Shown here piece by piece: positions 22,353-49,189 of a stretch of 64,000 nt of DNA; within the stretch, counting starts at the first letter, position 1, and each line of letters starts with the position of its first letter. The stretch is from Octopus vulgaris (Eukaryota). The DNA lies in contig OX597836.1 in NCBI GenBank assembly GCA_951406725.2, positions 44,640,001 through 44,704,000 of the forward strand, in the 5' to 3' direction. Under the pieces are notes generated by a model. The model did no database searches and was not told where the DNA came from. It saw nothing but the letters and a program-made list of their open reading frames with translations. A program made the translations under genes and the position numbers.

Positions 22353-22575
22353 CCCTTTCGATACCAATCTTGCTGAAACCAGCCTTGGCTCTGTAGTACA
22401 AATGTTTTGTTTTTATAAGTTTTGAATTAAAATCTTCCACCAAACTTTAGTCACGATTTATGTTCCTAACACTAGCTTAATGATAACTAAGTTATTCTAC
22501 TAAATTTTTTGTTATATCCAAAATTAAAATTAAAGAAAAACAGAGCATCTCAAAATAAATACGGTAACGAAAGGG
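22353..22575. mobile_element. piggyBac-type MITE, family 2
   Basis: TTAA|CCCTTTCG...CGAAAGGG|TTAA; other copies at ~38312-38532 and 54612-55329. Confidence 0.85.
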
Positions 22576-23111: not shown

Positions 23112-23419
23112 GTGGAGGCACATGGCCTAGTGGTTAGAGCAGCGGACTCGCGGTTGAGGGATCGCAGGTTCAAATCTTAGACTGGACGATGTGTGTGTTT
23201 ATGAGCGAAACACCTAAGCTCAATGTGGCTCTGGCGGAAGGTAATGGCGAAACTTCTGCTGACTCTTTCGCCACAACTTTCTCTCACTCTTTCCTCCTGC
23301 ATCTTGCAGCTCACCTGCAACGGACTGGCGTCCCGTCCAGGTGGGGAACCTATACGCCAAGGAAACCGGGAAACCGGCCCTTATGAGCCAGGCATGACTC
23401 GAGAAGGAACAAACAACAA
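23112..23419 (+). mobile_element. tRNA-derived SINE, family D
   Basis: 13-bp TSD CAGATACCCTCTT at 23099-23111 and 23420-23432. Confidence 0.9.
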
Positions 23420-23675
23420 CAGATACCCTCTTCATGAATGCAATCAGTGTATGTTTGCCTCAGAACAAGGCTTCCAGAATAATCAACATAATCCAACAGC
23501 ATGAAAATGTTTTCATCTTCTTAAGAAACAGCATGCACTCCACCTCGCATCACCCTATAACACACCCTGTTAAACCTTCAACTAAACTTCTTCAATATCA
23601 ATACTAAAAAAAAAAGTCTGTATTTTATTCTTTTCTCTTTTTTATTTGCATATCTTTTGTTTTTTTGTTTTTAAG

Positions 23676-23726
23676 AGCAAAGAAGATAAAGAGAGAAAAA
23701 CTCTTGAATTACTTCAAGGATCAAAG
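23676..23726 (+). CDS. VPS11: VPS11 exon
   Basis: Long T-rich tract, aag|...|gtgagg; SKEDKERKTLELLQGSK; phase 0-0. Confidence 0.88.
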
Positions 23727-26008
23727 GTGAGGCGGTCTAAAATACCTTTCTTTACCATCAATATTACTTGACAATTACCTTATCTTCATATGTTGTTTCT
23801 TTTGTTGTTCAATACTAACTCAGTCCCAATTGAGCAAACCTATGTTCAAAGGTATACCATCTGGCCATCCTATCTTATTTTCAAACATAAGGTATTAGGG
23901 GCTACATCCCCTCTTTCTATATTTCTAAGGCTATATTGTCCAGTGTGTCTCTTTTACTCTTTTACTTGTTTCAGTCATTTGACTGCAGCCACGCTGGACT
24001 TATTCTTTGTAAGCCTAGTACTTACTCTATCGGTCTCTTTTTGCCAAACCGCTAAGTTATGGGGACGTAAATACACCACCATCAGTTGTCAAGTGATGTT
24101 GGGGGGACAAACACAGACACACCAACATATACATATATATACATACATACAACGGGCCTCTTTCAGTTTCCGTCTACCAAATCCACTCACAAGGCTTTGG
24201 TCGGCCCAAGGCTATAGTAGAAGACACTTGCTCAAGGTGCCACACAGTGGGACTGAACCCTGGACCATGTGGTTGGTAAGCAAGCTACTTACCACACAAC
24301 TCACAAGACACCATTTTTAAAATGGTGTCTTGTGAGTTGAAGATTTGGTTGCTACTTTTAGCAGATCAAGCATCCACAGAGAGGCAACTTGTTGATACCT
24401 ATCTTTACATATAATGTCATTTGCTTGTCTGGCCTAACCCTAGTGTTCACAGTGACAGCCATGTAAACCTGTGATTTCTCAAAATAGACTGTAATACCCA
24501 CACTAAACAAAACTATATCAGTTACGATGACAAGGAGTGTTCCAGTTGGTCTGATCAACGGAACAGCTTGCTCATGAAATTAACGTGTAAGTGGCTGAGC
24601 ACTCCACAGACACGTGTACCCTTAACATAGTTCTTGGGGAGATTCAGCATGACACGGAATGCGACAAGGCTGGCCCTTTGAAATACAGGTACAACTCATT
24701 TTGCCAGCTGGGTAGACTAGAGCCAAGTGAAATAAAGTGCCTTGCTCAAGGACACATTGCACCAACTCACAACCTTACAATCATGAGCAGAAATACCCTA
24801 ACCACTAAGCCATGTGCCTTCCCCAGAAATTGTGTCGACTTAACAGCACCCCATAGTGTCTGTAATAGCAACAGTGACTGTCTGTTAATATCCATTTAAC
24901 AGTGACTGTGATAACTTCAATCATAATAGTGGATGTCTGTACCCACTTTGGCTCCTGTGCCGGTGGCACATAAAAAGCACCATCTGAACGTAGCCAATGC
25001 TTGGTCCACCAGACTAGCTCCCATACTGGTGACACATAAAAAGCACCATCTGAATGTGGCCAATGCCAGTGCCCCCTTGACTGGCTCCCATGCCGGTGGC
25101 ACGTACAAAGCACCATCTGAACATAGTCGATGCCTGATCCACCTGACTAGTTCCCAGATGATATTGTCTGTATTTTGAATTACATGTACATGGGACGCCA
25201 AAATATTTCAAGACAATGGGTCTTAATCTGGGCCCTGATTCTATCCCTTGCTAAGCTCATCTCTCACAGGTGTTCACCCTGAGGTGAATGTTCTACTTTA
25301 CTACAAAAGCTTCCATCACAGCAATGATGATGATCCCAGCATTCATGCTCTGATCAAGACCCCTATGATTAAGCCATGACCATCCCATTTAATATTTATG
25401 TCAAGCTACCTACTTTATTCATTCTGTCTTTCTATATTTTAAAACAGTAGAATGTAATTTGAAGGGAATTTTACTGCTATTTTCAGCAGATCAAACTAAC
25501 ACATAATGTCTTCCTTATTTCAACATTGATAATGACAAGAACCACAATAATTGCACTGTCCTCATCATCATCCTTTAACGTCCGTTTTTCTATGCTGGCA
25601 TGGGTTGCACGAGGCATGGGGCTCTGTGTTTAAAGTAATACTGCCTATCTGTGTATTTAACCCTTTACCATTTAAAACACTTATATCCAGCCCAAAATAT
25701 TCTACCTGTTCTATATTCAAACCGATGAGATCCAGCCTCTCACATTTATCGTACAATGTCATTCTAAAAATAAACTCTCTCTTCATCAAACCCTCAAAGC
25801 TGTGAGATAATGCATAATTAATTCAAAACAATGTAAATAAATAACATTACATTTCACAGAATAACCTGAATGCCAAAGGGATGTGTGTATGAATATATAT
25901 ATATATATAATTAATAATATCAGGGTAATAAAGATTTTAGAAATTTTTACTACCTGTGGCCTAGAGTGTAGAAAAATTTAGTCAATAGACTATATATTAT
26001 TTATATAA

Positions 26009-26498
26009 ATACAGTGTACATTTAAACACATAAGAGGTATCCGTCAAAGGATTCCTTTCATGCTAGATGGAACAGCTAAAGTCCAAACAACTATTAGGGA
26101 TAAAAACTCAAAGGGAATGAAAAATAAAAACATTTACCATCTGGAAAATTGTTCGAAGAAATGCCGGTATTTTCTTCCTGCCAACAAAATATTGCGCTTG
26201 CGCAGTAGATCTGAAAATATATAATGTATAAGCAAGATGCACATGCTGGATTTGCCTCGTACTTATATGTTTAATCTAGGCTTACCTGTTGATGAAGACT
26301 TCGCCTAGCAAATTATTTTATTTTATTTGCTAAAAAAAAGTCAGAAACCATGGTCCAGGAAATAGATGGTAAATGTTTTTATTTTTCATTCTCTTCGATT
26401 TTTTTATCCCTAATAGTGGTTTGGACTTTAGCTGTTCCTTCTAGCGTGAAAGGAATCATATGACGGATACCTCTTATGTGTTTAAATGTACACTGTAT
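26009..26498. repeat. (TA)n-flanked fold-back element (~135-bp arms) with a hammerhead-like motif in the spacer
   Basis: 26009-26142 inverted at 26362-26498; CCTG TTGATGA A GACT..AGTC A GAAA CCATGG TC CAGG at 26285-26359; related copy at ~48925-49160. Confidence 0.85.
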
Positions 26499-26650
26499 GT
26501 ATGTATATATATATATATATATAATTTCAGTAAAACAATTAAGATTCAAGTGAGTTCCAATGAATTCGCATGAATGCAGTACTTAAATTAGATGCACCAG
26601 AAATCTTTATGGTATTAACCATAAAATAATGTGGGGTGATTATAAACAAG

Positions 26651-26841
26651 AAAAAAGCAACAAGAATGGATTAGTTGTTCAGTACAATTGTTTCATACGA
26701 AGAACAGATTTATTAAAAGCTGCAAATATTGCAGCAAATACAGGACACTTGTATTTGCTGCAATATTTGCAGCTTTTAATAAATCTGTTCTTCGTATGAA
26801 ACAATTGTACTGAACAACTAATCCATTCTTGTTGCTTTTTT
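26651..26841. repeat. Apparently perfect 92-bp-arm hairpin with a 7-nt loop
   Basis: 26651-26742 is the reverse complement of 26750-26841; arms carry the hammerhead 3' half GAAACAATTGTA. Confidence 0.95.
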
Positions 26842-27797
26842 ACACATATATATTCCCATATTTCATTCCATAACGGCTGCCTTTGATGAGTGCAGGGTTA
26901 CATAATCAGACTATTACCTAACACTATTGAACCCCTGGTGAAAACCATTTTGTAAGATCAGCTGTAAAGGATATATAATACTGTGCACTTCGATTAATAA
27001 ATATATATAGAGAGAGAGAAACCAAAAGGCTGTATATATATATATATATATATATAAGCACACATACATAAGGTACTTATGTGTTCTTTGGACATTTGCC
27101 CAGCAAACCCAGTCCCCAAAATATGCTACATATATTAGTACTACTGCCAGAACTAGCCTTTCACATCTACCCAACAGTATCATTTTAAAGATAAACAATG
27201 ATATCATTTGAATCTTTAAGCAACATGATAATGCATGAATAATTCAAAACAATCATCATCATCATCATCATCATTTAACATCCGTTTTCCATGCTAGCAT
27301 GGGTTGGATGGTTCAACCAGGGTCTGGTAAGCCATGGAGGCTGCACCAGGCTCCAGCCTGGTTTGGCAGTGTTTCTACAGCTGGCTGCCCTTCCTAATGC
27401 CAACCACTCCGTGAGTGTAGTGGGCATCTGCCACGTTCAGACGGTGCTTTTTACGTGTCACCAGCACAGGTGTCTTAACTACAATTTCCATTTGATTTTT
27501 ATTTTGATGTTGGTAAAGACGTACTTGACTCAATAGGTCTCCTCGAGAACAGCGGGTCATGTGTTACACTTAACAGAATAGTGTGAATGCTAAAGGGTTA
27601 AGGGGTCACATTTCTCTTACACCAGCTTCTCCTCCTCCTCCTTAACACCGTATAATAATCCCCCTCGCCACATCCTTTGAGATCATTATATCGTGATTCC
27701 CCTGATCCCCTTATATCTTGACCCTTCATCATGTACCGTCAGTTTTCTTTTGCCCCCTTTCTCCTTTTAACCCGTATCTGTTTTTGTTCTTCTGCAG

Positions 27798-27886
27798 GCT
27801 GGCTACGATATCAACCAAGCCCTTGTTCTCTGTCAGATGCACAACTTTACTGCTGGTATACTCTACCTTTACGAAAAGGCTGAGCT
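27798..27886 (+). CDS. VPS11: VPS11 exon
   Basis: cag|...|gtatgt; AGYDINQALVLCQMHNFTAGILYLYEKAE(L). Confidence 0.95.
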
Positions 27887-27941
27887 GTATGTATTATATG
27901 TGTCTTTTACTACAATTTCTCTCTCTCCCTAAATCTATCTA

Positions 27942-28373
27942 TCTATATATGTATAAACGGCAGTTTGTCTGTCTGTGTGTCTGTCAGGTTGTACCCTCAC
28001 CCTGACCACGGCTTTCAACCGATTCTGATGAAACTTGACACACACATAGCCCAATGTCATAATTCAAAACTAACGGAGCGAAAATTTTGAAAAGTTCCCC
28101 CAGTTCTGAAAAAAATCGATAAATTCGACATGGGGTCGAGAATCTAAGCTTTTTATATGCAACACATTTTCTGTCTAGGGGACACAACTCGACCTTTTTA
28201 TCGCCCAAAGGGACAGCTAGGAACATCGTATACACAGAAGTATTCGAGTGAAGAGAAGACATTGCAACCTACACATGCGCCTTCGTTCCCTAGAGGGAAA
28301 GAACTAGATTGGGATTAGTCGTTGCCTACTAGGGGTTCTTACATACCCGGGCAACACCGGGCTATGCTGCTAT
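27942..28373 (+). mobile_element. Helitron-like element, family 3
   Basis: TC(TA)n start like family 2; 3' hairpin CCCGGGCAACACCGGG followed by degenerate CTA[T]. Confidence 0.6.
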
Positions 28374-28560
28374 TATATATATAAAAAGTACAAAGTAAGA
28401 TAGGGGTTATGTGTGTAACCCACTATGGGATAGCATTTATCCAATATACTGTTGGTAAAGTACCCAGATTCTTAATACATAAATGTTTTTAATTGCATTG
28501 CAATTAACTCATTTATTGTATTAAACGGGTGAAGGTAAAGAAATATTTTTACCGTAAATT

Positions 28561-28990
28561 TATAATACAAATAAGAAAATGGAGAAACAAGTTTAGTTTG
28601 TTCATCAACTTTCGGATATTATAATGTTAGATTATTTATTCATTTAACAAAATGAGAACATCAAAAGCATACAAATATATCCTATAATTCAATACATATA
28701 AGATAAGAAAACAAATTATAAAAGTCATAATATAAATGATTGAAATCATTAAAATCACTTCTTACAGCTGTTTCAGCCTATGGCTAAAAGTAGTTACTTT
28801 TATCTTGTTTGCCTATATATTTATTATAACTTTTATAATTTGTATTCTTATATGTATTGAATTATAAGATATATATGTATGATATTGAGGTTCTCATTTT
28901 GTTTAATGAATAACTAATCCAACATTATAATATCCGAAAGTTGATGAACAAACTAAATGTGTTTCTCCATTTTCTTATTTGTATTATATA
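28561..28990. repeat. Diverged fold-back element (~170-bp arms)
   Basis: 28561-28735 inverted at ~28820-28990; GAAACAGCTGTA on the minus strand in the spacer. Confidence 0.85.
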
Positions 28991-29733
28991 TATGTGTGTG
29001 TGTGTGTGTATGTATATAGGTATGTTGGTGCAAACTTATATATATAAAATGTAATGTAAAACCAAAAAGGAAAAATTTAATTGTATTCACTATACTATGT
29101 ACCCTTTTAGATAATGGCCATTGTGTATGTATGTGTGTGTCTGTATATGTTTATGTGTGTTTATATATTTATATATATATATATACACATGTGCATGCAC
29201 ACACACACACACACATGCAGATGTGGTCTCAAGTTCAGTTCCATAGTACAGCACCTCGGGCAAGTGTCTCCTACTGTAGCCTCAGGCTGACCAAAGCCTT
29301 GTGTGTGGATTTGTTTGATGGAAACTGAAAGAAGCCCATGCATATATTTATGTGTGTGTCTGTGTTTGTACCCCCACTATTGCTTGACAACTAGTGCTGG
29401 TGAGTTTACGTCCCAATAATTTAGCAGTTCAGCATAAGAGACCAATAGAATAAGTACTAGGTTTACAAAGAATAAGTCCTGGGGTCGATTTCTTCCACTA
29501 AAACCCTTTAAGGCGGTGCTCCAGCATGGCTGCAGCCAAATGACTCAAACAAGTAAAAGAATAAGAAAATTCTAATACCACAACAAATTGTTTGGTAACT
29601 TAAAAACACAAATGATTTATTTTATTATATTTAACGAAGACAGTTTTTCACCTGAAGATGTAAAATCCTTAAAAATGTTTTAGCCCAAAGGCCGCGGCCA
29701 TGCTGGGGCACCACCGCTGAAAAGAAAGCTTTC

Positions 29734-29806
29734 CTATCTGCATGGGAGTCGAACCCACATCCCTTTGTTCACGCGACTAAGTGTACTACCGTTACACCAG
29801 CAAATC
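29734..29806 (-). pseudogene. tRNA-like head (Thr-CGT-like) of a very short SINE
   Basis: Cloverleaf: acceptor 6/7 pairs, D arm GTGT/ACAC, T arm GTGGG-TTCGACT-CCCAT; position 33 is not U; followed by the family A-type tail. Confidence 0.65.
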
Positions 29807-30815
29807 AGCCTGTAACTTAAATTCTGCATAATTTTGAAGGATTTCTTGCATTTTGCATTAATGCAGACATGGAAGTAATTTATTTGTTATTGAATATAAT
29901 AATATAAATTATTTACATGTTTTAAGTTACGAAACAATTTGTCATGATACTAGAATTTTCTTATTGTTAAATAAAATTCCATGTAACTGTTTCTCGGTCA
30001 TTTGTAACTTTATGCTCTCCTTATCGTTTTCTCTTCTATCATAGTATATATTCTATGTTTTGTAGGGAGCATTTTTTTAATGAGTACTGCCGGATTAGTT
30101 GAATCCATATATTGTGACTTAAATTTATATATATATATACGAGCGGCGAGCTAGCAGAAACGTTAGCACACCGGGCGAAGTGCGTAGCCATATTTCGTCT
30201 GTCGTTACGTTCCAAGTTCAAATTCCGCCAAGGTCGACTTTGCCTATCATCCTTTCGGGGTCAATAAATTAAGTACCAGTTACACACTAGGGTCGATGTA
30301 ATCGACTTAATCCCTTTGTTTGTCCCCTCTGTGTTTAGCCCCTTGTGGGTAGTAAAGAAATATATATATGAACAAAACGCCCCCCTGTCCAATGGACGTT
30401 GCTGAGTTGTCAAATATTTAAACCAAATTTTCTCAAAACAACTTGTCCGACCGTCCCATAGGCCTCCCCTTTGAGAAACACTGATTTAACCTAAATTTGA
30501 GACACCAGCAAAAGAAGAAATAAAGATAGACTTTTTTTCTATTCCAAAGAAAAGCGATTTCCCACGGCTTTATCGATCGCATTCTCACCTGGAATCGATT
30601 TTTGTAATTTTTTCAAGACTTATACACGCCCTGATATTGTCGGTATCTACATATCAAATTTGAGCGCAATCGGATGGAGGATGCCCGAGACCCTAGAAGA
30701 CACACACAGAACAGATTTTATATAAGAGATATATGTGTGTGTGTGTGTGTGTGTAGATTGCTGTTTTTAGTGTGTTATGATGTTCCTATTGGCAGCATTG
30801 TAATATTTTTTGCAG

Positions 30816-30890
30816 TTATGAACAAATTCTACGCTATCACATGGACCATGATGAATATGGACAGGTTATTAACACATGTAAACGGTTTGG
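30816..30890 (+). CDS. VPS11: VPS11 exon
   Basis: cag|...|gtaagt; YEQILRYHMDHDEYGQVINTCKRF(G). Confidence 0.95.
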
Positions 30891-31202
30891 GTAAGTACAA
30901 ATTTATAATTTCTCTACTGCTGAGAAGATTCTCAGTTGAAGGTGGGTAAATATGAATGTCTTATTGCCACGTATCCACAACATGGGGGATACATGTTATT
31001 GCCATGTATATAGCATCATTACTATTATCATCATCATCATTTAATGTCTGTTATCGGTTGGATGGTTTGGCAAGAGCTGGTAAGTCAAAGGGCTGCACCA
31101 GGATCCAATAATTTGTTTTGGCTTGGTTCCTACAGCTGGATGCCCTTCCCAATGCCAACCACTTTTCAGAGTGTACTAGGTGCTTTTTTGTGGCACCAGC
31201 AT

Positions 31203-31822
31203 GGATCCTTTTCACATGATTTAGACATGCTAGAACACCTACCAAAAGCAATTAATGAAGAGGGAATATTGGTCACCCTCGATGTTATCAATTTTTACAC
31301 CAACATCCTGCATAACTATGGAATAAAAGCAATCAAATTCTGGTTGGAAAAGTACCCCGAAGTCCTTCCAGAACGCATAAACCAGATCTTTATTATCGAA
31401 TCCTTAAGATTTATACTTCAGAACAATTATTTCCTATTTGATGACAGATACTACCGTCAGAAATGCGGAATTGCGATGGGAACGAAAGCAGCCCCTGTTC
31501 TTGCGAACCTAATAATGGATTATTTTGAATTCACCTTATATGAAGTATCACTTCAGAAATATGGTTACCCGTTTTACCTCCACATAAGAGAAATTTGGAA
31601 AAGATACCTGGATGACTGTTTTATCATCTGGAAAGAACATCGACAAACTTTTGGACTTCAAATCAACACTAAATGATATAAATAGTAACATTCAATTCAC
31701 AATAGAATATAACAAAGAACAACTCCCATTTTTAGACATCATGATAAAAAAAAGTTAACAATGAAATCATAACTGACATTTATTATAAACCAACTGATTC
31801 AAAACAATATCTTCTCTTTAAC

Positions 31823-31830
<8 letters not shown>
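31203..31830 (+). mobile_element. Penelope-like element reverse transcriptase fragment (frameshifted)
   Basis: LVTLDVINFYTNI...YRQKCGIAMGTKAAPVLANLIM...WKRYLDDCFIIW, then IQFTIEYNKEQLPFLDIMI and TDIYYKPTDSKQYLLFNSCH; ends in (TA)n. Confidence 0.9.
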
Positions 31831-31871
<41 letters not shown>

Positions 31872-31875
<4 letters not shown>

Positions 31876-32487
31876 CCAATTCAACTAACTTACTTCTTAA
31901 ATTTCAACTCCCGATCGATGTCCGCAGCAAGTTCTTTAAAAATTTATCTTAATATTTCCATTCGTTGTTACTACGTTTATTCATACATTGTTACGAAAAT
32001 TTAACCTTTTAAGGCTACTTTCAAGCCTTCGCCATAACTTGATTTATCTTTCTATCTCTCTCTCTACAAAATTTAACCTTAGGCGAGGCTACCTCAAGCC
32101 GTAATCCCATCTCTTCCCATCTCTTCCCATCTTTCAGCCATCTTTCAGCCATTGGCGGTCTTTTTTCCTCCTCTTACCATTACGATTCTACAATTTAAAT
32201 TCCCAATTCAACTAACTTACTTCTTAAATTTCAACTCCCGATCGATGTCCGCAGCAAGTTCTTTAAAAATTTATCTTAATATTTCCATTCGTTGTTACTA
32301 CGTTTATTCATACATTGTTACGAAAATTTAACCTTTTAAGGCTACTTTCAAGCCTTCGCCATAACTTGATTTATCTTTCTATCTCTCTCTCTACAAAATT
32401 TAACCTTAGGCGAGGCTACCTCAAGCCGTAATCCCATCTCTTCCCATCTCTTCCCATCTTTCAGCCATCTTTCAGCCATTGGCGGTG
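31872..32487. repeat. Near-identical tandem duplication, period 327 bp
   Basis: ATTCCCAATTCAACTAAC... begins at 31872 and 32199. Confidence 0.93.
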
Positions 32488-33469
32488 CGCCCGCCCCCCA
32501 CCCCCACCACCAATACCGATGAACACTGTTCTCACCCCCACCACCAATACCGGTGAACACTGTTCTCACCGCCAACACCACCAATACTGGTGAACACTGT
32601 TCCTCACCCCCCCACCACCAATACCAGTATACCCTGTCCTCACCATCTACACCGGATACGCCTTACTCATCTACACCGGGTAAGCCCTACTCCCTCCTCC
32701 TCCCCCCACTACCCCTTCTCCTCATATGCTTTCACTGTGAAAAGACAAGCTGCTAGCGCCATAGCTCATCAACTGCCCACCGATCTTACGCTTCCTCCGG
32801 ACACTGCTTCATTCCGACTATCCCCCTTTAGCACCCTCCCGCCTCGTAATATCCTACGTTTTTATTTCTTAGGAACCTACACCAACCCTTCCTGCCATCG
32901 TTCCTCCTTACCCCAACCTTCCCCACTGGTTGCTCCCCTATATTACCCACCTCAACTGGACCCCCCTCCCCAACTCAACTCTAGAATATCTGTATTCTTT
33001 CCTCTACCTAATAACGTTACTCAGTGACGATAACGAATGTCTTTATTTCTTAGGAACCTACACCAACCCTTCCTTACTCAGTGACGATAAATGCTGTGAC
33101 TACAAAGACCTGGGCTGCTTTCTGCAGCAATTCCACATACCCCCTACTCATTCTAAGTACCCCAGATCCCCAAAGTACCCCGGACCTCGTTGCCCCCGTG
33201 CCGCTGACACGTTAAAATGCTCGAACCGATCGTGACGATGCCGGACCCTCCGGCCCCTGTGCAGGTGGCACGTAAAAAGCACCCAATCCACTCACGGAGT
33301 GGTTGGCGTTAGGAAGGGCATCCAGCCGTAGAAACTCTGCCAGATTCAGACTGGAGCCTGGTGCGGCCCCTGGCTTCCCAGACCCGGTCAAACCGTCCAA
33401 CCCGTGCTAGCGCGGAAAGCGGACGTTAAACGATGATGATGATGATGATGATATATATATATATATATA

Positions 33470-33585
33470 CTTTATTTAAAGCAGCAGAAAATTCAACAAA
33501 AGCTGTAGCAAAAACTGTCCAATGAACGGCAACGGGAAACTCAGAGTAACAGGTTTTGTTGAATTTTCTGCTGCTTTAAATAAAG
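33470..33585. repeat. Short fold-back element with a degenerate hammerhead-like motif (33515-33552)
   Basis: 32-bp inverted arms; CTGT CCAATGA ACG GCAA CGG GAAA CTC A GAG TA ACAG. Confidence 0.7.
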
Positions 33586-33871
33586 CATATTACTCTACCA
33601 CTGGTATTTGAGTACTCTTTTTTCCACCTTGTTTCACATTTATGTGTTTACTCCGGTGTATATATATATATATATATTTATTTGTATGTATATCTGTTAT
33701 ATTTATATATATATGTGTGTGTGTATATCTGGGAGTGTGTCACTGTGTATTAACTATGTGTTTCCCAGTTTGTAAAAAGCCACTGTTGTATGAAAAAGTG
33801 GGAAGTAGAGATTTCAATAAATATGGCTTGATTCTTTTTTTTATATATTTTGTTTCTTTCTCTCTTTCCAG

Positions 33872-33963
33872 AATTCAAGAACCAAATCTCTGGGTTCAGT
33901 CCTTGTCATATTTTGCAATGAAAGAAGACAACTGTAAAACTTTCCTAATGGAAGTTCTTTCTC
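33872..33963 (+). CDS. VPS11: VPS11 exon ending at a U12-type donor
   Basis: cag|...|ATATCCTTT; IQEPNLWVQSLSYFAMKEDNCKTFLMEVLS(H). Confidence 0.93.
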
Positions 33964-35005
33964 ATATCCTTTGCAGATTTCATGCCTTTAATAAGTGTTT
34001 TTATTTGATACCGTGAGAAATGTGCAGAAGCATGTCTCCCTGTTGACAGCAGACAACAGATGCTTTTGGGATGATGATAATGCAGAGGGATGCCAATATG
34101 TTTTATGAGACACTGTGGCTGTGAGGTATGAAGGGTGGATTACTGGACACATAACCAGAAGTTCAAATTTTACTGCAACCACTATATATATATAGTTGCC
34201 ATGATAGATTGTTAGCCATTACACTTTCTTTATTTTCACTTCTTATTTCCTTCTGTGTCCCTTTCTGTAGAAGAGCGTAGGCTCGAAACATAAAAGACTT
34301 TTTCTATTCCTGAGTGTTATACTAATACATCCGTTTGTTTTGTACACCACCTGTCTTCGTCTTTTGATTTTTTCATAAATTCTTCCTATAGATATATACT
34401 CGAGCGTTTACCTGAGTATTTATTTAATGTGTTATCTATGTTTGTTTTCTTATCTCTCTCTCTCTCTCTCTCATACAGACATGTGTAGGTTGAAACAATC
34501 GTAGTTAAATAATATAAAACTCTACATATGTATTTCATGCATTGATTATTAAATATGAAAGAAGTCTTTGATGAAACCTAATTGAACAGATAACATCATC
34601 ATCACTCTATCTATCTATCTATATCCATCTACTTCTATCTATAGGGAGAGTTTACGAAAAAAAAAACCAAAAGACGAAGACAGGTGGTGTACAAAACAAA
34701 CAGATGTATTGGTATAACACTCAGGAATAGAAAAAGTATTTTACGTTTCGAGCCTACGCTCTTCTACAGAAAGGGACACAGAAAAAACAAGGAGAGAAAA
34801 AATATATATACATATATAGGGAGAGTTTACAAAAAAAAGCAAAAGACGAAGACAGGTGGTGTACAAAACAAACAGATGTATTAGTATAACACTCAGAAAT
34901 AGAAAAAGTCTTTTACGTTTCGAGCGTACGCTCTTCTACAGAAAGGGACACAGAAAAAAACAAGGAGGAAAAAAATGTGTGTAGTGGCTAACGATCTATC
35001 ATGGC

Positions 35006-35043
<38 letters not shown>

Positions 35044-36247
35044 AGAGTTTACGAAAAAAAAAACCAAAAGACGAAGACAGGTGGTGTACAAAACAAACAG
35101 ATGTATTAGTATAACGCTCAGGAATAGAAAAAGTCTTTTATGTTTCGAGCCTACGCTCTTCTACAGAAAGGAACACAGAAGGAAATAAGAAGTGAAAATA
35201 AAGAATGTGTAGTGGCTAACGATCTATCATGACGACTGCCAGACAGAAGGGTCTCTCTATCTATCTATCTATCTATCTATCTGCATGTCTCTCTCTATAT
35301 CTGTCTGTCTGTCTCTATTCAGTTTCCCACCTGTTAATTGCCTTACTCACTTCCATCCTTTGTCTTATTTCAATTCTTCTCTCTTGCTGGATACATCACC
35401 ATTTTCCTCATCTCTATTTCTCTCTCACCATACAGCATCCAAGTACATCCACTTATCAACTTCTTTTGTTCTTAATATTCTATTTCGTTGTCCTTTTTTT
35501 AAGATTGTAGGCTGTGATCTGAGTGAGATTTGGCTACTATTACTGGTAAGTTAAACGACTGCAGAGAGAAGCTCTCACTGATTTGGATTATCAGATATTC
35601 TCTCTTTACTCTCTTTTACTTGTTTCTGTCATTTGACTGTGGCCATGCTGGAGCACTGCCTTTAGTCGAGCAAATCAACCCCAGGACTTACTCTTTGTAA
35701 GCCTAGTACTTATTCTATCAGTCTCTTTTGCCGAACTGCTAAGTGACGGGGACGTAAGCACACCAGCATCAGTTGTCAAGCGATGTTGGCGGGACAAACA
35801 AATACACACACACGTACATATATATATCATATATACGACGGGCTTCTTTCAGTTTCAATCTACCAAATCCACTCATAAGGCTTTGGTCAGCTCGTGGCTA
35901 TAGTAGATAAACACTTGCCCAACGTGCCACGCAGTGGGACTGAACCCGGAACCATGTGGTTGGTAAGCAAGCTACTTACCACACAGCCACTCCTGATAAG
36001 TAAGTAAAATGAAAAATGGCTTGACTGGAATTTGAACTTGTATCATGTACTCGGCTGTTCAGAGACGGCCTTTACCTTTTATCTCACTTACACCAAACAT
36101 AGTATGCCGCCAGATTTTTGAAAACCTGTGATGCACTTTTGACATCACTCACAGAGCATTGCTGCACCACTTTACCACTGCATTGAAGTATATCTTTGTT
36201 CTTAGTGACCCTTGTTATCAAGAAAAACCTTCCTTAACACTGTTCAA
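33964..36247 (+). other. U12-type (minor spliceosome) intron with AT-AA termini, 2284 nt
   Basis: 5' site ATATCCTTT at 33964; branch site TTCCTTAAC at 36230-36238; the junction ending ...TTCAA|ATATCGAC restores VLS-H-IDKKNLLPPLLV. Confidence 0.9.
34195..35240. repeat. Four ~160-200-bp copies of a hammerhead-like repeat: one + (34195-34390) and three tandem - (34643, 34818, 35041)
   Basis: Shared CTTT CTGTAGA A GAGC GTA(G/C) GCTC GAAAC(G/A)TA AAA; separated by (TA)n. Confidence 0.85.
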
Positions 36248-36333
36248 ATATCGACAAGAAGAACCTGTTGCCTCCGTTACTCGTCATCCAGACATTGGCC
36301 AACAACTCTGCTGCTACACTGTCAGTTGTAAAG
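36248..36333 (+). CDS. VPS11: VPS11 exon following the U12 intron
   Basis: (H)IDKKNLLPPLLVIQTLANNSAATLSVVK|gtaaat. Confidence 0.93.
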
Positions 36334-36502
36334 GTAAATTCCTTCGTTAAAGGGGTCATTCAAGGGAGTAATTGTTGTTATTGTTTAGCTAAATGGTTCT
36401 CTACCAGGATCCATAAGGCCCTTGAGGGTCCTTATAAGATTTTGCTGTTAAAATTTATTACCAATAAATTGCTTTTAGTTCTGAATACAATCCCTAATAA
36501 TG

Positions 36503-36900
36503 TCTTTATATATAAAAGTGAGGTTGTGTGCTGTCTGTCTCCTACGATTTAGATTCCTAACTACTCCCACATTTTGCGGTGCAGTTTAACCAAAACCGGG
36601 TATCTTATAGTCGTGATTCATATCGAGCCCTTCTGGGTATTAGCGCGTGTCTACGATGAGTCTACGATTTAAAAAAATTTACCATCAATTTTTCCCATTT
36701 TTAATGCATTTTTGGCATATATAAGGGAAGTAACTCTCTAAAAATTTATTATTAAATCTCAGAACATAAAAAGCTACAGTGACACCCCCCCCTCCTTTGT
36801 GGTTAGCCATATTGAGATGGCTATTATACTTTACATCTCTAAAAATGCTTATTTAGTTATTTCCCTTACAAACCCAAGCAACGCCGGGCGATACTGCCAG
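36503..36900 (+). mobile_element. Helitron family 1 copy with insert, nested in a hAT-like MITE (~36390-37273)
   Basis: TC...CCAG; outer ends TGGTTCTC / GAGAACCACTG. Confidence 0.75.
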
Positions 36901-36929
36901 TTTAATAATAAAACAATAATAGAATTTTT

Positions 36930-37232
36930 TTTTTTACACATTGGCCCACAGCTCTTCAATATCATCCCGAAGGACTTGAGAGACCTGCATTTGGTGGATG
37001 CAGATGTCTTTAAAATAAAACTGGATCTCTTCCTGTCAGGTGTCCCAGATGAACCAACTTCACGGCAGGAGGTGCAGATGAGGGCAGCTTCATCAAACTC
37101 TCTCATGCACCAAATGGCAATTGCTAAAAAGCATTCGTGAAGTAAAATCATGTAGCAACACCAAATGGCGGTGCCCCAGCATGGCCACAGCTCGTGAGCT
37201 GAAACTAGATAAAATAAAATAAAATAAAAATA
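36930..37232 (+). mobile_element. LINE 3' end (Jockey/CR1 group) whose 3' UTR matches the SINE family A tail
   Basis: GPQLFNIIPKDLRDL...FKIKLDLFLSGVPDEP...SNSLMHQ*, then GGCGGTGCCCCAGCATGGCCACAG...TGAAAC and (TAAAA)n. Confidence 0.8.
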
Positions 37233-39292
37233 AATTGGGGTCCATAGATAAAAAAAATAATTGAGAACCACTGGTTTAGGCAAAGGTCAATTCTAGTCAA
37301 GTAGACATTATCAAAGACGTTCCAACTTTGACCATCCCATCTGTTATTTTCAGATATTGTATATTGACAACATCAACCAAAGTGCCCTTTTGTTTTATAA
37401 CAACAGTATGTAACACAAAGGGTGTTTGGCTGCTCCTTTTAGCAGATTTTGTGATTGCTTTTGTTAGCTTTTGTTATCCTGTTGTTTAGATCCAGGGCAT
37501 CTCTGACGAAGCAGATACATTCAAAAGCCTTCTAGCCATGACTGTCACTTTTATTCATATAATCTATGCAGGACTACGTTAGCCATGTCCCTCAGACATA
37601 GCACATCTCAGGTCATGGTGTTCTTATTTCTTTATTGCCCACAAGGGGCTAAACACAGAGGGGACAGACAAAGGGATTCAGTCGACTGCATTGACCCCAG
37701 TGCGTAACTGGTACTTAATTTATTGACCTCGAAGGGACAAAAAGTCGACCTCAGCAGAATTTGAACTCAGAATGTAAAGACATGAAATACCGCTAAGCAT
37801 TTCGCCCGGCGTGCTAACGTTTCTTATTTCTTTATTACCAACAAGGGGCTAAACATAGAGGGGACAAACAAGGAACAGATAAAGGGATTAAGTCGATTAC
37901 ATTGACCTAAGTGTGTAACTGGTAGTTAATTTATCAGCCCCGAAAGGATGAAAGGCAAAGTTGTCCTCGGCAGAATTTGAACTCAGAACGTAAAGACAGA
38001 CGAAATACCGCTAAGCATTTCGTCCGGTGTGCTAACGTTTCTGCCAGCTCGCTGTTCTGATCTACTGCCATCTTGAGTTACCAGTTAGCAATTTGTTGTA
38101 TTCTATCAAGACAGAATTACAGAAAAGGTTTTATAAGATAGGAGCTGTTCTTTTTATCTTCAGATACAGTTTTGTGTCATTTGGGAAAGAAATCATTAAG
38201 AAAGAAAATCTCTTATAACCCACTCACTATGAATTTCATCTTGTAAGGGACTCCTTGTAGTCTCCAAGCTCATGAAAGGATTTAAATCCACTTTCTGTGG
38301 AACAGACTTAACCCTTTTGTTACCGTATTTATTTTGAGATGCTCTGTGTTTCTTTCAATTATTTTAAATATAACAAAGAATTTAGTAAAATAACTTAATT
38401 ATCATTCAGCTAGTGTAAGGAACATAAATTGTGACTAAGGTTTGGTGGAAGATTTTAATTCAAAACTTATGGAAACAAGACATTTATATTACAGAGCCAG
38501 AGCCAGTTTCAGCCGGGTTGGTCACGAAAGGGTTAATTATCCATTTCAGTGAAATTGGACTAATTTTTTTTAAAACAAACTTTTATTTATGTTTATCATG
38601 TTTAATATGTGTTAAAAGTGTATATTTTATGATTTTTATAATAATTTTATTTTCATTTCTGCTGGATCCCACTTACCTGTCCACAGCAGCTTTTTACTAA
38701 TTGGCTGCAATCGTTGGAAGATTTTAATTCAAAAACTTCTGAAAACAAGACATTTGTACTCAGAGCCAGAGCCGGTTTCGGCCAGGTTGGTAATGAAAGG
38801 GTTAAGCTGTTGCCTGGTTTGACAACACCAACACCTCAACCAGATCTGTGGGTGCTTTTAGTATAGTCCACTCTGTCACAAACATTCAGATTGGGTATTT
38901 GGCCTGGGTATGTCTTCCTCACATCAGTCTTGGAAGCTCTGCAAGAGGTCATGGCCATTTCCCTTTCTCTTCTCACGAAGCCTTTAAAAATTAAAATACA
39001 AAATATCAATCATGCAATGAGAGCGGCCCACAGCAATAAATTGCATGGTTCCTATTTGTAATTAGATGGACTGAGCCAGTGAAAATTAAGTTTTTTCTTT
39101 TCTGTATTTTTTATCACATAATCAGCTTAGTTTCACTGTGTGTGTGTGTGTGTGTGAAGTAAGTTTACATGAGGTTAGTGTGTGTGTGTGTGTGCATGTG
39201 AGAGTGTATAAGTAGGTGTTGAGATAGCTTCTGCAAGATCCGTATGCTTCTGTGCCTGCAATGATGTGAGTTTGTTTTCTCTTCCGCCATAG

Positions 39293-39414
39293 GACTATAT
39301 TGTCAAGCGTCTGCAGCAAGAAAATGATCAGATAACTGAAGACGAACGGCTTATCCAACAATATAGGGAAGACACTCTGAAGAAAAAAAACCAAATTGAA
39401 GAATTAAAGACTTC
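39293..39414 (+). CDS. VPS11: VPS11 exon (coiled coil)
   Basis: tag|...|gtaagt; DYIVKRLQQENDQITEDERLIQQYREDTLKKKNQIEELKT(S). Confidence 0.95.
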
Positions 39415-40289
39415 GTAAGTTCCATTAGCTTTGCTTTTTTTTTCCTTCTGTTTCACCTTCCTCTGATTTGCAATTAACAAAGGCACATAAGGGGCCCTAT
39501 TCGATCGTGGCCGTTTGCCAGCCTCGCCTGGCCTCCATACCAGTGGCACGTAAAAAGCACCATCCAATCGTGGCCGTTGCCAGCCTCGTCTGGCCTCCAT
39601 ACCAGTAGCACGTAAAAAGCATCATCCAATTGTGGCCATTTGGCAGCCTCGTCTGGCACTTGTGCTGGTGGCACGTAAAAAGCACCATCCGATCGTGGCC
39701 GTTGCCAACCTCGTCTGGCACATAAAAAGCACCCACTACACTCACGGAGTGGTTGCCGTTAGGAAGGGCATCCAACCGTAGAAACACTGCCAGATCAGAC
39801 TGGAGCCTGGTGCAGCCTTCTGGCTTCACAGACCCCAGTTGAACCGTCCAACCCATGCCAGCATGGAAAGCGGACGCTAAACGATGATGATGATGATGAT
39901 GATGATGAAAACCATTGAAACCATCCCAAAGATGATATCAGAGTTCAACACAACCCTGCAGCCCACTAGTTCCGTGTCAGACCATCCTACCCATGGAAAC
40001 ATGTGATGATAGTAGTGGCAGCAGCAGCAGCGCCATCTTTATCCTGGTCCTGAAAGATTATCCCCACCTGTCTCTCTCTCTCTGTCTCTCAATTAGCACA
40101 AAGAAAAATCCAGAAATATATACCACAATTTCTCACCTGAATTTAGTGCTCGGTTGTCAAAAATCATGCCTCTTTCTTATATTTTCATTTTATTTCTCTT
40201 CCATCTCGTAAGAAATTCTTTGAAAATTGGTTCATGTGTTAAACAGTCTTTCTTCTTGTAATTAAGTATTGTATTACCTATGTAAATCA

Positions 40290-40575
40290 TGGGAAACTAC
40301 CACCTGTGTCATCTCTTGTGAAAGGTAGGAGAGTCCAGTTTGCTGGACATTGTTGTAGAGCTGAAAACGAGGCAATTTCTACTCTTCTCCTCTGGAAACC
40401 ATCTACTCGCAATACCAGAGGGCGCACACTCTCCTACCCTGATGTAATCTCCAGGGATACAGGCATCCAGCAACAGGACCTCTGTAATGCTATGATGGAC
40501 CGTGAAGTCTGGCATAACATGGTAAATTCCATTGTCTCAACCACGGTCGAACAATGATGATGATGATGATGATGT
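40290..40575 (+). mobile_element. RTE/RTEX-type LINE 3' end
   Basis: RRVQFAGHCCRAENE...LLWKP...MMDREVW...STTVEQ* followed by (GAT)n. Confidence 0.85.
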
Positions 40576-40784
40576 AAATCAGATACCCCCCACCCCTTTC
40601 TGTCCTTTTTTTAATAGTCTTTAGCAAGGATATACTGCATGTTAGTATTTGTGGGATTACTGTTCTGATACAAATTGCTAGAAACAACTGAAAATACTAT
40701 TCTTATAATGGCCATTAATGAAGGCCTGTCTTTAGTCATAAACTCATATGCCTTGTTTAACATGCTTAATTTCCAATTTTCCAG

Positions 40785-40883
40785 CGCAAAGATCTTCCAA
40801 GCCCCTAAATGCAGTATTTGTAACCATCCTTTGGAAATCCCATCGGTACATTTTCTCTGTGAACCTCACTCTTACCATCAACA
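40785..40883 (+). CDS. VPS11: VPS11 exon (RING-H2, N-terminal half)
   Basis: cag|...|gtaagt; AKIFQAPKCSICNHPLEIPSVHFLCEPHSYHQ(H). Confidence 0.96.
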
Positions 40884-43588
40884 GTAAGTAACACAGAATT
40901 TATTATTTGCTGTATTTGCATAAAAAAAGAAACTGTGTGAATCTTGTGGTCTCATATCTTGTATGTAACATACTTAACCCTTTACTGTTCAAATATTTGG
41001 GCAATATCAGGCCCAAATATTCTATCCTTTTTACGATAAAACCAGCCAGGTCTGGCTTCTCATACCTACCCTACAATGTCATTCTAAAAATAAACAATCA
41101 CATCTTTGAAATCTCAAAGCTATGAGATAATGCAGGATTAATTCAAAACAATGTGAATAAATAAGCAATACATTTGACAATAGTTCGTATGGTAAAGGGT
41201 TAAAATAAGAAACTCTGGGAAAACTGTGGCTTTCAACAGCTGAGTACTCACCTGGAAAGCACCTGGTAACATCGTTCGATACAAAGTTGAATAAAGGAAC
41301 TAATGTCAGTCATTAACCATCCAAGTTTAAATTTTCATTTCCAATATGTACCATGTTTACATCATTTACATGGTAAATGTTTGTGGCAAAGGCATGAATG
41401 CTACATTATTGACTCTCTCAATACCACATGGTTCCATGCAATATATAGGTGTTAAAATACCAGAAATAGATTACTCTCTTTTACTCTCTTTTACTTGTTT
41501 CAGTCATTTGACTGCGGCCATGCTGGAGCACCGCCTTTAGTCGAGCAAATCGACCCCGGGAATTATTCTTTCGTAAGCCCAGTACTTATTCTATCGGTCT
41601 CTTTTGCCGAACCGCTAAGTGACGGGGCTGTAAACACACCAGCATCGGTTGTCAAGCAATGCTAGGGGGACAAACACAGACACACAAACATACACGGACA
41701 TACACATACATACACATATATACAACAGGCTTCTTTCAGTTTCCGTCTACTAAATCCACTCACAAGGCTTTGGTCGGCCAGGGGCTATAGCAGAAGACAC
41801 TTGCCCAAGATGCCACGCAATGGGACTGAACCCGGAACCATGTGGTTGGTTAGCAAGCTACTTACCACACAGCCATTGCAAAAACCAAATGTGTCAGTGG
41901 TTTCCAACCAGAGATTCAGAGACAGTGGCTAAAGATGTGGTGAGGTTTTTTCTGGAGTTTATTTTATCTCTGTCGGGACAAAACAAGAATTGTCATGGGC
42001 CTTAAGCATTAGAAAAAAAGAATGATGAGCTCACAAAAATGTTGGACACCACTTATGAAGTTCACTTATTGGTTAACACTTTGGCATTTCATCTAGCCAT
42101 ATCCAGTCTAAATACTCTACCTGTTTTATGTTTAAAAAAATGATATGGCCAGTTTGAATTCTATAGGGTTAAGTCAGTCATAATATCTCGATTCCAGAAG
42201 GTAGAAAGGCAAATTTAACCGTGACAAGATTTCAAAATGCAAAAGACATAACAAAATGCATAAGGAATTTTGTTGATGCTCTACCATGTTTCTAACTGAG
42301 GCAAAAGGCCTGAAATTGGTGCGAGGTGTTTCATCATCATTTGGTTGAGCTTCCTCGGACACTTTTAACCTACACACATCATCATGCACTTTGGTCTTGC
42401 ATTGGTCGAGGGAAGTCTTCAGGGGGGCATCCAGTGTCTCTGCTGAATTGATGTCTGTTGTGTCCGGATGACCTGCTTGAGTACAGCCACACTTTGGCTT
42501 CTGTAGCAGTAAGTCATTTTCCAACTCTTGTTTAGCTTGCTGGGCAATGTCCCACAAAGTGCAAACGCCCTTTCCCTATAATGGTGAAAACAGACACATC
42601 TCCATACAGCTGCTTCATGGTGGGATGAGTTCTCTAAGGTTGCTCTACCCCAATACTTGACTGGTACTTTAAGTGACCCCCGAAAAATATGACCAAATTT
42701 TCCTCTCTGTGATTTGAACTTGTTTCTTTACTGCCCACAATGGGCTACACACAGAGGGGACAAACAAGGACAGACAAACGGATTAAGTCGATTAGATCGA
42801 CCCCAGTGCGTAACTAGGTACTTATTTAATTGACCCCGAAAGGATGAAAGGCAAAGTCAACCTTGGCGGAATTTGAACTCATAACGTAGCGGCAGATGAA
42901 ATACAGCTACGCATTTCGCCCGGCGTGCTAACGTTTCTGCCAGCTCTTGAGATGTGCAAGTGCATTACTAAATACCACAAGGCATTTCAAACAATACTCT
43001 TGTGGTTTGCCAATTCACCAGCTTTAATGATAATTTTTATTATTGCTGCTGGGGCCCTTTCTTATCATACAACATATGTATTCACATTTAGGGTTTAGAA
43101 AATGTGTGTAAAGTGGACAAAACAAAGATATATAAAAATAAGGGGAAGGGCAAAAATACATTATATGGCTGTGTGGTCAAGGAGTTTGCTTTGTAACCTC
43201 ATGGTATGGGGTTTGGTCCCATTGTGTGGCATCTTAGGGGAGCATTTTCTATAATAGGCTCTGGTTGATAAATGTCTAGTGGATTTAATTTCATAGAAAG
43301 AAACTGCAAGGAAGCCCATCTTTTTATATATGTCTTTGTGTCTGTTGTATGAGCATTTGTTATTACATGTTTTCACATTAACACCACTTGGACAGTCGTG
43401 ATGCTACATAAACAGTCCAGTAATTTGGAAGGCCAACATACAAAAATGTCAGAGTATCCTACTTGAGAACAAGAGTTGGCATCAGGAAGGGCATCTAGTT
43501 GTGGCAATACTTGCCTCTAGAACCTTCCTTCAACTCATGCATGGTTGTAAAAACAATATATATAGACATAATCAAAATTTTATATAGA

Positions 43589-43932
43589 CTAGCACTATGA
43601 CCCGGCAACGTTGGGTCATAGTGCTAGTGCATGCATATACAGCTGTGTGCATGCGCACATACACGCGAGTACTGTCCAAATTTCTGACCAATCACATACA
43701 GCTAGCTGGCATTCAATTGGCGTATCAAGTTTCGGGCATTTTGATTGGGTTTTCAATAGAAAATTCTATTATTTTTTAATGGCTTTGCGGGGTGGCTGGG
43801 GAAATGTAAAGATGTGCCCGACCACCCTTGGACGGTTTTGAATGACCATAGAAAGTGCGAGCCCTCTAACTGAAAAATTGTGGATTTTTTAAAGGACACA
43901 CACACAGACATTTTGCTGTTTGTATATATAGA
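43589..43932 (-). mobile_element. Helitron family 2 copy
   Basis: Reverse complement of 10124-10491, including the terminal palindrome. Confidence 0.8.
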
Positions 43933-44349
43933 TATGCATGATAGACAATAGGAGCTGCTAATTATGAACACTTTGAAATGAATCTTTTAATAATTACTGG
44001 CTGATAAGGTGAGGCAAATAAAGAATTCAAGGACCACAAATTTGGTGACAATAACTAATTGGTAATATTATTTGTAATTGTAATAAACATCTTCTACTGC
44101 ATGAACACAAATAAGTACAAATACCGTAGATAAGGGAAACTAAGGGAGTGGCAGGTTGTCACCTAGGTTTGCTATAGTAATATAAAGCCAGATAATTTAT
44201 AATAGGAATGATATTTAAGCAAATTACTTCGTCTGCACAATAATTCTATAGCCATTAATTACAAAAGTCATTCCTAAATTCAATAAAATAGTTGTTTTTT
44301 TTAATAGAATCTAACAATTTCTATTTTTTTCCCTCTCTCTCTCTACTAG

Positions 44350-44403
44350 CTGTTTTGAATGTTATGGTGAAAATGAATGCCCTGTTTGTATGCAAGAAAA
44401 CAG
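44350..44403 (+). CDS. VPS11: VPS11 exon (RING-H2, C-terminal half)
   Basis: tag|...|gtaaga; CFECYGENECPVCMQEN(R). Confidence 0.93.
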
Positions 44404-44534
44404 GTAAGATCTTTATTTATTTTATCTTATCATTTAAGACAAGATACCTTCTTTTGTATGTCACTTTCCTCCTTTACCCTAGCTCATCAACCAAACAGCT
44501 TTACCATAGAGGACGTGCTCCCTTTTCCTGTAAA

Positions 44535-45320
44535 TTACAAAACTTTAGGGCTGCAGCAATAAATATAGGCCTAATGATAGGTAGGTTTAGTGAGATTGTG
44601 GAAATGCTGGAACAGAGACAAGTGGTTGTGTGTTGTGTGCAAGAGGAAAGATGGAAGGAATCCTCAATCACACTCTTCACAGGCAAGAGACAGCAGTACA
44701 CATTTTTCTGGCTGAGTAATAGAGACAAGGCATACTCTTACCTGAGAAATAAAGTAATTGAGGTAGTCAGTGTTTCTAATTATAGGCAACTCAATAACAA
44801 CATTCATCTTGGCAGAAGTCATTAAGCGAATGTTAAACGATGACTCCCCTGTGCAGACAGGACAGAAGAACCACTTCTGTGAGACCCTTCAGCACACATC
44901 CTCAGTAGTGACTGACAGTAACCTCATTATCGTGGCCATCAACGTCAATGGATGTCAGCCAAAACAGTGATGATTTCAGCAGTATACATGGAGGCTATGG
45001 TTTATGGTTCAAGAAATGAGGAGGGTGTATGATACCTGGAGTTCTGTGATGCAAGTGATCTAACAATTTGCAACACATTTTAGGAAACCAACTAAACACA
45101 TCATGACCTACCTGTCTGGCGAGCACTAGTTGGACAGGTTACACTCTCAACAGTAGTGCTATTGTAAATGCCAAAACCTTTCTTGAAAAAGAATATATTA
45201 TGCAACATAGATTAGTGGCAGAGCCAGGCAGACACTGAAATGAAAGACAACATGGAAAAGGAAGATATGGAAACTAAAAGAGCCTGCAATTAAGAATAGA
45301 TTTCGAGAAATTCTGACACT
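44535..45320 (+). mobile_element. Decayed RTE-type LINE AP-endonuclease region
   Basis: NIGLMIGRFSEIVEMLEQRQVVVCCVQEERWK resembles the RTE APE N-terminus (NVGTM..GR..E....L..R.VD..CVQETRW). Confidence 0.7.
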
Positions 45321-45401
45321 AAGATTACAGATAAATTCCTCTATTTACATAATATCGAGGTCTCTTTCTTTCTCCTGTTGTCTTACCATTTTTATCAATA
45401 T

Positions 45402-45942
45402 ATATAATAACAATTTAATAAATAAAACATATGCATACATACATATATGTACATACCTACATTTATATGTATATATACATGCATATATGGGTACAGGACA
45501 CCCCAAAAAAAAAACGTAGAACACAACAGGAAACGGAAACATAAAAACAAAACAAGGAAAGGGACTTTTGTTTTTTTAACAACGAAAAAACAGAGTACAG
45601 GACAAACAACACAAGGAACACTCCCCTTCTTCAGATGCCCCTGTTTCGACTCAATGCATGTTTCGAAGGTAAGGGCAATTTCGAAACACGCAATGAGTCG
45701 AAACAGGGGCAGCTGAAGAAGGGGAATGTTCCTTGTGTTGTTTGTCTTGTACTCTGTTTTTTCATTGTTAAAAAAAAAAAAGTCCCTTTCCTTGTTTTTA
45801 TTTTTATGTTTTTGTTTCTCGTTGTGTTCTACGTTTTTTTGTGGTGTCCTGTACCCATATATACATGTATATATATATATACATGTAGGTATGTACATGT
45901 ATGTATGTATGCATATGTTTTATTTATTAAATTGTCATTATA
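45402..45942. repeat. Large fold-back element (~265-bp arms, 12-nt loop)
   Basis: 45402-45667 inverted at 45680-45942; produces the mirror-image ORF pairs in the ORF track. Confidence 0.95.
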
Positions 45943-46014
45943 TGATCAAATGCCATGCGTCGTCTTCTTCCAAGTAAGTTTTATATAAATATATATATAT
46001 GGATTTCTCTGCAG

Positions 46015-46081
46015 GAAAGTGATGGAAGTGATCCGAGCCCAAGAACAAAACAAGGATATTCATGAACATTTCCACAATGAG
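46015..46081 (+). CDS. VPS11: VPS11 exon (VPS11_C)
   Basis: cag|...|gtattt; KVMEVIRAQEQNKDIHEHFHNE. Confidence 0.95.
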
Positions 46082-46995
46082 GTATTTTTTTATTCTCCCC
46101 TTGCTTTCCTTCAATTCCTTATTCTCTAAATATGACTTCTGTCAGTTCTGTAGTTACAAAGATCAAGTACCAGGCTTCAAAGACATAAGCACTGAGGTCA
46201 ATTTGTTCAACTGAACCCTTGAGAACAGTGCTCCAGCATGGCTACAGTCCTATGACTGAAACAAGCAAAAGATGTATATAGGTGCACGAGTGGCTGTGTA
46301 GTGAGTGGCTTGCTTACCAACCACATGGTTCTGGGTTCAGTCCCACTGCGTGGCATCATAGACTAGTGTCTTCTATAGCTTCAGCCCGACCAAAGCCTTG
46401 TGAGTGGATTCGGTGGACAGAAACTGAAAGAAGCCCGTCGGTTATATGTATATGTGTGTTTGTGTGTCTGTGTTTGTACCCCTACCATCACTTGAAAACC
46501 AATGTTGGTGTGTTTACGTCCTCCGTAACTTAGCAGTTCACCAAAAGAGGCCGATAGAATAAGTAAGTTCTAGGCTTGCAAAGAACAAGTCATGGGGTCG
46601 GTTTGTTCGACTAAAGTCAGTGTTCCAGCATGGCCACAGTCAAATGACTGGAACAAATAAAAGAATAAAAACATGTACTCTGTACTATGTCATACTGATG
46701 GCAGCAAAGAGTGTTACACCCCTAAGCTAGAAATTGATCTATGACTAAACCTTTTTAAAAAGAAATCTTTTTTGTTCTTTTCCCTTGCTTTCAGCCCATT
46801 GTCTGTGATAAATAAGGAAGTTTTAGAGCCATTTGGCATCTACTTCCAGCATGTGGCACTACTCAGTACTTGCTTTTGTTATATTTATAAAATTATGTAC
46901 TTTGTGTTAATTTTTATCTAAATGGCTTGTTTCATGCTAGCTACTTGATAAAATCCTATATAAATTTTATCCTTGATTATAATGATATATATATA

Positions 46996-48260: not shown

Positions 48261-48265
48261 TGTGT

Positions 48266-48307
<42 letters not shown>

Positions 48308-48310
<3 letters not shown>

Positions 48311-49157: not shown

Positions 49158-49189
<32 letters not shown>

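Follow-up and report, generated by a model that had tools for sequence, protein, structure and literature searches.

In a 64,000-nucleotide stretch of Octopus vulgaris genomic DNA (hereafter, the window), an intron of VPS11, a gene serving endosome and lysosome traffic, very probably starts with AT, ends with AA and is removed at the junction 33963/36248, with the minor (U12) spliceosome as the likely agent. Judged from the sequences found at the same site in other animals, this intron, intron 21, belongs to the ancient minor introns of animals, and its ends have changed between AT-AC, AT-AA, and GT-AG.

The exon at 6439–6633 is 98% identical to the named VPS11 proteins of O. vulgaris and O. 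sinensis. Exons were mapped by tblastn with named octopus VPS11 proteins on the window plus 120 kb upstream, followed by junction refinement. The map comprises 28 coding exons and 27 introns, with exons 1–9 lying outside the window, up to 14.6 kb upstream. The stretch 36150–36400 is single-copy in the 2.8-Gb octopus genome. The features referred to below are as follows:

1314..50747, + strand: VPS11 coding exons 10–28 (tblastn, junction refinement, Pfam on P0003)
33872..33963, + strand: exon 21 (junction refinement; equal over 33934–33963 to the loose ends of the RNA-like contigs)
33954..33955, + strand: weak GT within exon 21, which the gene models that are seven residues short imply as donor
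33964..36247, + strand: intron 21, probable U12-type with AT-AA ends, 2,284 nt, phase 1
33964..33972, + strand: putative U12 5' splice site ATATCCTTT (sequence; predicted pairing with U11 and U6atac of the same genome)
34014..34016, + strand: TGA met when intron 21 is retained
34194..35237, no strand: inverted repeat in intron 21, with arms at 34194–34373 and 35058–35237 (180 nt, 95% complementary)
36230..36238, + strand: putative U12 branch site TTCCTTAAC (sequence; complement in the U12 snRNA of the genome)
36246..36247, + strand: AA acceptor (DNA contigs X3 and X7; RNA-like contigs start at 36248)
36248..36333, + strand: exon 22 (RNA-like contigs, junction refinement), whose first five bases are identical to the start of intron 21
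36257..36258, + strand: AG within exon 22, which the same short gene models imply as acceptor
40785..44403, + strand: exons 24–25, Cys/His RING-like region (tblastn, junction refinement)

The name RING for exons 24–25 is based on residue spacing and on the precomputed PF13923 assignments of homologues; the octopus VPS11 protein itself gave no RING match in Pfam at E 0.01. At 40850–40883 this region reads Cys-Glu-Pro-His, which adds one residue compared with the homologues of echinoderms, corals, and placozoans; the longer form is also present in cuttlefish and in a bivalve-like protein. Elsewhere in the window, stop-to-stop open reading frames at 63250–63867 (− strand) and 31588–31755 (+ strand) contain short fragments that we take to be reverse-transcriptase-like.

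A check of the sequence placed the U12 donor, the branch site, the TTCAA end, and the next exon where the original prediction had put them. The donor sequence ATATCCTTTG starts at 33964, and ATATCCTTT fits the 5' splice site criterion RTATCCTT at position +1 of a boundary that is defined by both RNA and protein. The last base of exon 21 opens a His codon (phase 1), TTCAA at 36243–36247 forms the end of the intron, and exon 22 follows from 36248. The branch A is 36236 or 36237, 11 or 10 nt before the intron end, and the sequence upstream of the acceptor is purine-rich, with no pyrimidine tract in the intron. GT-AG ends with ordinary donors were found in 26 of the 27 VPS11 introns, leaving intron 21 as the sole AT-AA intron; none of the others carries a U12 branch site within its last 40 nt. 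When both strands of the window and of the 120 kb upstream of it were scanned (368,000 nt in all), TTCCTTAAC was found at this single place and ATATCCTTT at five, so that their joint occurrence at a boundary set by the protein is no coincidence.

With the U12 donor, each of ten other A-N ends lying 3–27 nt past the branch A causes a frameshift. The original claim that the nearby acceptors frameshift stands to this extent, but it overlooked an in-frame combination of the GT at 33954 with the AG at 36258 that deletes seven residues. An AC one base past the branch A is also in frame; we infer that it lies too close to be used. Within the intron, at 34183–35237, a 172-nt repeat occurs three times in direct orientation and once inverted. 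The repeat looks like a mobile-element fragment, and its 180-bp duplex (−291 kcal/mol) is a possible editing substrate.

Of 24 listed runs, 4 were aligned, as assembled contigs, at 36040–36480 on the 3' side of intron 21. The RNA-like runs X18 (organism B, study P10) and X20 (organism E, study P11) gave one contig each, both matching 36248–36334 without difference. In both contigs, the 30 letters preceding 36248 equal 33934–33963, and the letters after the match run on into exon 23. The exact 33963/36248 join, as predicted for a U12-type AT-AA intron, is present in both of the two RNA-like runs aligned, where RNA-like denotes an automated guess for runs of which none is recorded as RNA, and where contigs drop rare isoforms. 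The spacing of the protein agrees with this join: 33 residues separate the anchors flanking the junction in 91 of 112 homologues of at least 700 residues, exactly as 33963/36248 gives, and 102 of the 112 have 32–34 residues, with 10 deviating.

Two DNA runs from two other studies, X3 and X7, both cover the acceptor, and positions 36230–36238 and 36246–36247 are unchanged in both. X3 departs from the window at positions 36168 and 36383 and therefore represents another haplotype. X7, which carries the label of organism D, has one gap and 14 substitutions; G36242C falls between the branch site and the intron end. As the A at 36247 is present in both contigs, it is not an assembly error, and the original reading of this base proved genuine.

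Several other accounts of this junction were weighed. The counts of conserved animal minor introns in PMC10639083 (16,044 AT-AC, 823 or 1.117% AT-AA, and 54,669 GT-AG) put AT-AC about 20-fold ahead of AT-AA, which by itself would favor an ordinary AT-AC intron whose last base was misassembled or is a private allele. We regard this as next to impossible, since neither the other haplotype of X3 nor the other organism label of X7 has any other letter at 36246–36247, and the AA end recurs at the same site in nine coral-like loci. An ordinary GT-AG intron running from 33954 to 36258, with a protein seven residues shorter, would be in frame, and exactly these residues are deleted at the exon 21/22 junction in the public models CAI9739698.1 (O. 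vulgaris), A0A0L8GJ43 (O. bimaculoides), and KAL3888023.1 (the mussel Sinanodonta). However, the full exon 21 end is joined to 36248 in both RNA-like contigs; the residues are kept in the RefSeq models of O. sinensis and O. bimaculoides, in Argonauta and Sepia, and in four Logan transcript-contig proteins; and the donor at 33954 is poor. Tested as a U2-type GT-AG pair, 33954/36258 failed, being unused in the RNA-like contigs and having no pyrimidine tract before the AG. We consider it very improbable that this pair delimits the true intron; it may be spliced as a rare fallback isoform. The contigs hold neither a different GT-AG junction nor a C at 36247, and the mis-annotation that the original prediction had feared is realized in the three short models. 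The O. vulgaris model also lacks some beta-propeller residues (exons 7–9), and O. bimaculoides models lack exon 14 (P0002, P0122, P0127), which are either further annotation gaps or isoforms.

The predicted slide of the junction by up to five bases is real: six registers (AT-AA, TA-AA, AT-AT, TC-TA, CC-AT, and CT-TC) give an identical mRNA, and the AT-AA register is fixed by the donor consensus and the orthologues, not by the mRNA alone. AT-AT minor introns exist, and a cut two bases on would produce such ends with the same mRNA. Nevertheless, ATATCCTTT stands at +1 in the unshifted register only, and orthologous AT-AC and GT-AG introns occupy that register, leaving a slid cut with very little probability. 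Cephalopods show heavy RNA editing, and the long inverted repeat in intron 21 could form double-stranded RNA, so A-to-I editing might convert AA to AI, read as AG, before splicing. However, the repeat lies about 1 kb from the acceptor, and a search of 33872–39400 turned up no pairing partner for the acceptor: the best duplex of 36225–36270 with that range reached −23.4 kcal/mol, weaker than those of all 25 control 46-mers. Moreover, the same AA is present in the coral-like loci, and AT-AA introns of other species are spliced unedited (PMC1557818), which makes editing a most improbable explanation. On the basis of the contigs, the junction analysis, and the duplex calculation, we rejected the assembly error, the GT-AG main isoform, the slid register, and A-to-I editing.

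A U12-type intron calls for a minor spliceosome, and the octopus genome was found to contain U12 (125 bits), U6atac (97 bits, the best of 43 scored matches), U11 (94.5 bits, five matches), and the CCDC84/CENATAC gene (three exon matches). Duplexes were predicted for the U11 and U6atac of this genome with the intron 21 donor and for its U12 with the branch site. At least 43 U6atac-like matches above the Rfam cut-off are spread over most chromosomes (the best being L017 and L018), compared with 5 for U11 and 3 for U12; the surplus U6atac-like copies are probably retrocopies.

According to PMC3584512, U12 introns are defined by the 5' site and the branch site, not by the terminal dinucleotides, and the distance from branch to end matters, with an optimum of 11–13 nt; the 10–11 nt of intron 21 is at or just under this optimum. 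Its motifs make use of the minor spliceosome likely. U11 and U12 would bind the donor and the branch site, and U6atac would then take over from U11 at the donor. The acceptor would be chosen mainly by the 10–11 nt spacing from the branch A, so that AA would be used despite the AC and AG further on. An intron-retaining transcript reaches the TGA at 34014 before the RING-like region, as had been predicted, and retained or mis-spliced VPS11 transcripts would probably be degraded after meeting such early stops. The accompanying idea that slow splicing limits VPS11 output is plausible by analogy only, namely with the human VPS11 minor intron, whose retention rises upon CENATAC depletion (see below). 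CENATAC serves AT-AN introns, a class with high basal retention (PMC8280824), and the human analogues of intron 21 have control PSI values of 0.11–0.29.

The comparison of orthologous termini that the original prediction had proposed revealed the same site with AA, AC, and AG ends. In one pattern scan of metagenome contigs, whose pattern demanded a U12 branch site and was thus blind to loss and conversion, 28 loci matched, of which 22 were VPS11 at the same phase-1 site. The six loci with no VPS11 match (L026, L028, L037, L039, L041, and L046) were dropped as chance. The scan gave no match in viral contigs and seven in prokaryote genomes, none of them VPS11, and short-query protein searches added little (2 and 34 matches). 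With taxa assigned by protein likeness only, nine stony-coral-like loci terminate in AA at a distance of 11 nt from the branch A, and the AT donor was seen in three; they represent five sequence types, one of which is 84–85% like the rest in the exon. Nine loci of a lophotrochozoan-like lineage, whose likeness to molluscs, to nemerteans, and to Lingula is in each case about 70%, end in AC; six of them show the AT donor. An AG end is present in three heterodont-bivalve-like loci and one Paralvinella-like (alvinellid-like) locus, and a U12-like GT donor was seen in three of these four. Following exon 22, a GT-AG intron (36333–39293 in the octopus; loci L022, L034, and L035) is present in the coral-like, lophotrochozoan-like, and alvinellid-like loci and absent in the bivalve-like ones.

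Mis-annotated protein models that read into the intron extend this comparison. In those of Porites evermanni (CAH3181686.1) and the sea spider Nymphon striatum, the branch site appears as Phe-Leu-Asn, followed by three residues and then Asn, suggesting A as the last intron base. For Trichoplax H2 and Ciona savignyi, the final residue is His, suggesting C; the Trichoplax model also reads across the AT donor. Two echinoderm-like open reading frames, flanked by non-homologous sequence, run straight across the site, and the intron is therefore absent there. By hand-counted parsimony, an AC ancestor and an AA ancestor tie at five changes when the sea spider is included, and the AC ancestor is favored, four changes to five, when it is left out. 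At a frequency of 4.5% AA among A-type introns, the probability of one more AA lineage among four others is 0.17 and that of two among five is 0.019; the recurrence of AA is suggestive but falls short of proof. We lean slightly toward an ancestral AT-AC intron that changed to AA independently in corals and in octopus, over an AA end dating from the coral–bilaterian ancestor.

Human VPS11 has one listed minor intron, an AT-AC intron at chr11:119068011-119069195 (PMC8280824 supplements 1, 2, and 5; PMC11347168 Table S6). Like octopus intron 21, it is A-type and phase 1, and its next exon starts with ATAT. It is retained in human cells upon loss of CENATAC or mutation of ZRSR2, with retention rising from 0.24 to 0.71 upon CENATAC depletion according to PMC8280824. 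However, its flanks encode Gly-Asp near the N-terminus, at approximately residue 49 of the octopus protein, whereas octopus intron 21 lies at residue 734; orthology of the two was rejected for this difference in codon position. The octopus has no intron at the human site, where exon 2 is unbroken (−12461 to −12288 relative to the window, L006), and no minor intron is listed in human at the site of octopus intron 21. The amphioxus and Trichoplax VPS11 models (P0039 and P0104) are disturbed at the N-terminal site, with traces of the human intron. To go by these sites, the ancestral VPS11 likely carried two minor introns, one surviving in human and the other in octopus.

By the counts of PMC10639083, no other non-canonical end is as frequent among animal minor introns as AT-AA. 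In PMC1557818, eight AT-AA introns are listed, AT-AN introns are reported as spliced, mis-mapping is warned of, and the ends switch between human and mouse in 14 of 24 non-canonical introns. The AT-AA introns of human PIGB, ABHD18, MSH3, and RASGRP4 (PMC1557818 Tables 2–3; PMC8280824 supplements) resemble the octopus intron in their AT donor with TCCTT, a TCCTTAAY-type branch site near the end, the AA terminus, and last-base switching between species. They differ in gene, and the AA of intron 21 is common to octopus and coral-like DNA, far beyond the human–mouse distance covered by PMC1557818. Switching of subtype is likewise on record, with 36 clusters holding both U12 subtypes given in PMC2831892; as in those cases (PMC2831892, PMC1557818), AT-AC and GT-AG occupy one position of VPS11 in different lineages, but the VPS11 site adds AA as a third state, present in two and probably three lineages far apart. 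We found no mention of octopus VPS11 intron 21 in the literature on VPS11, U12/minor introns, or the octopus minor spliceosome, or in the supplements searched. As the survey in PMC10639083 took in O. sinensis, O. bimaculoides, and Sepia, and the RefSeq junction is correct, the intron may well stand in its per-species tables. What is new here is the antiquity of the intron; the AT-AA class itself is already known.

Octopus VPS11 intron 21 reveals no new splicing chemistry or mechanism. Its use is for annotation, where gene models need correction: seven conserved residues at its junction are missing from no fewer than three public VPS11 proteins. A single intron in three terminal states across animals also provides a compact case for weighing drift against selection of AT-AA ends. 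It is conceivable, although we think it rather unlikely, that the AA end has been kept since the coral–bilaterian ancestor, or selected repeatedly in corals, octopus, and probably the sea spider, as a weak acceptor, surrounded by alternatives that shift the frame, that meters VPS11 and hence HOPS/CORVET assembly. If so, few conserved non-canonical splice sites of animals would match it in age.
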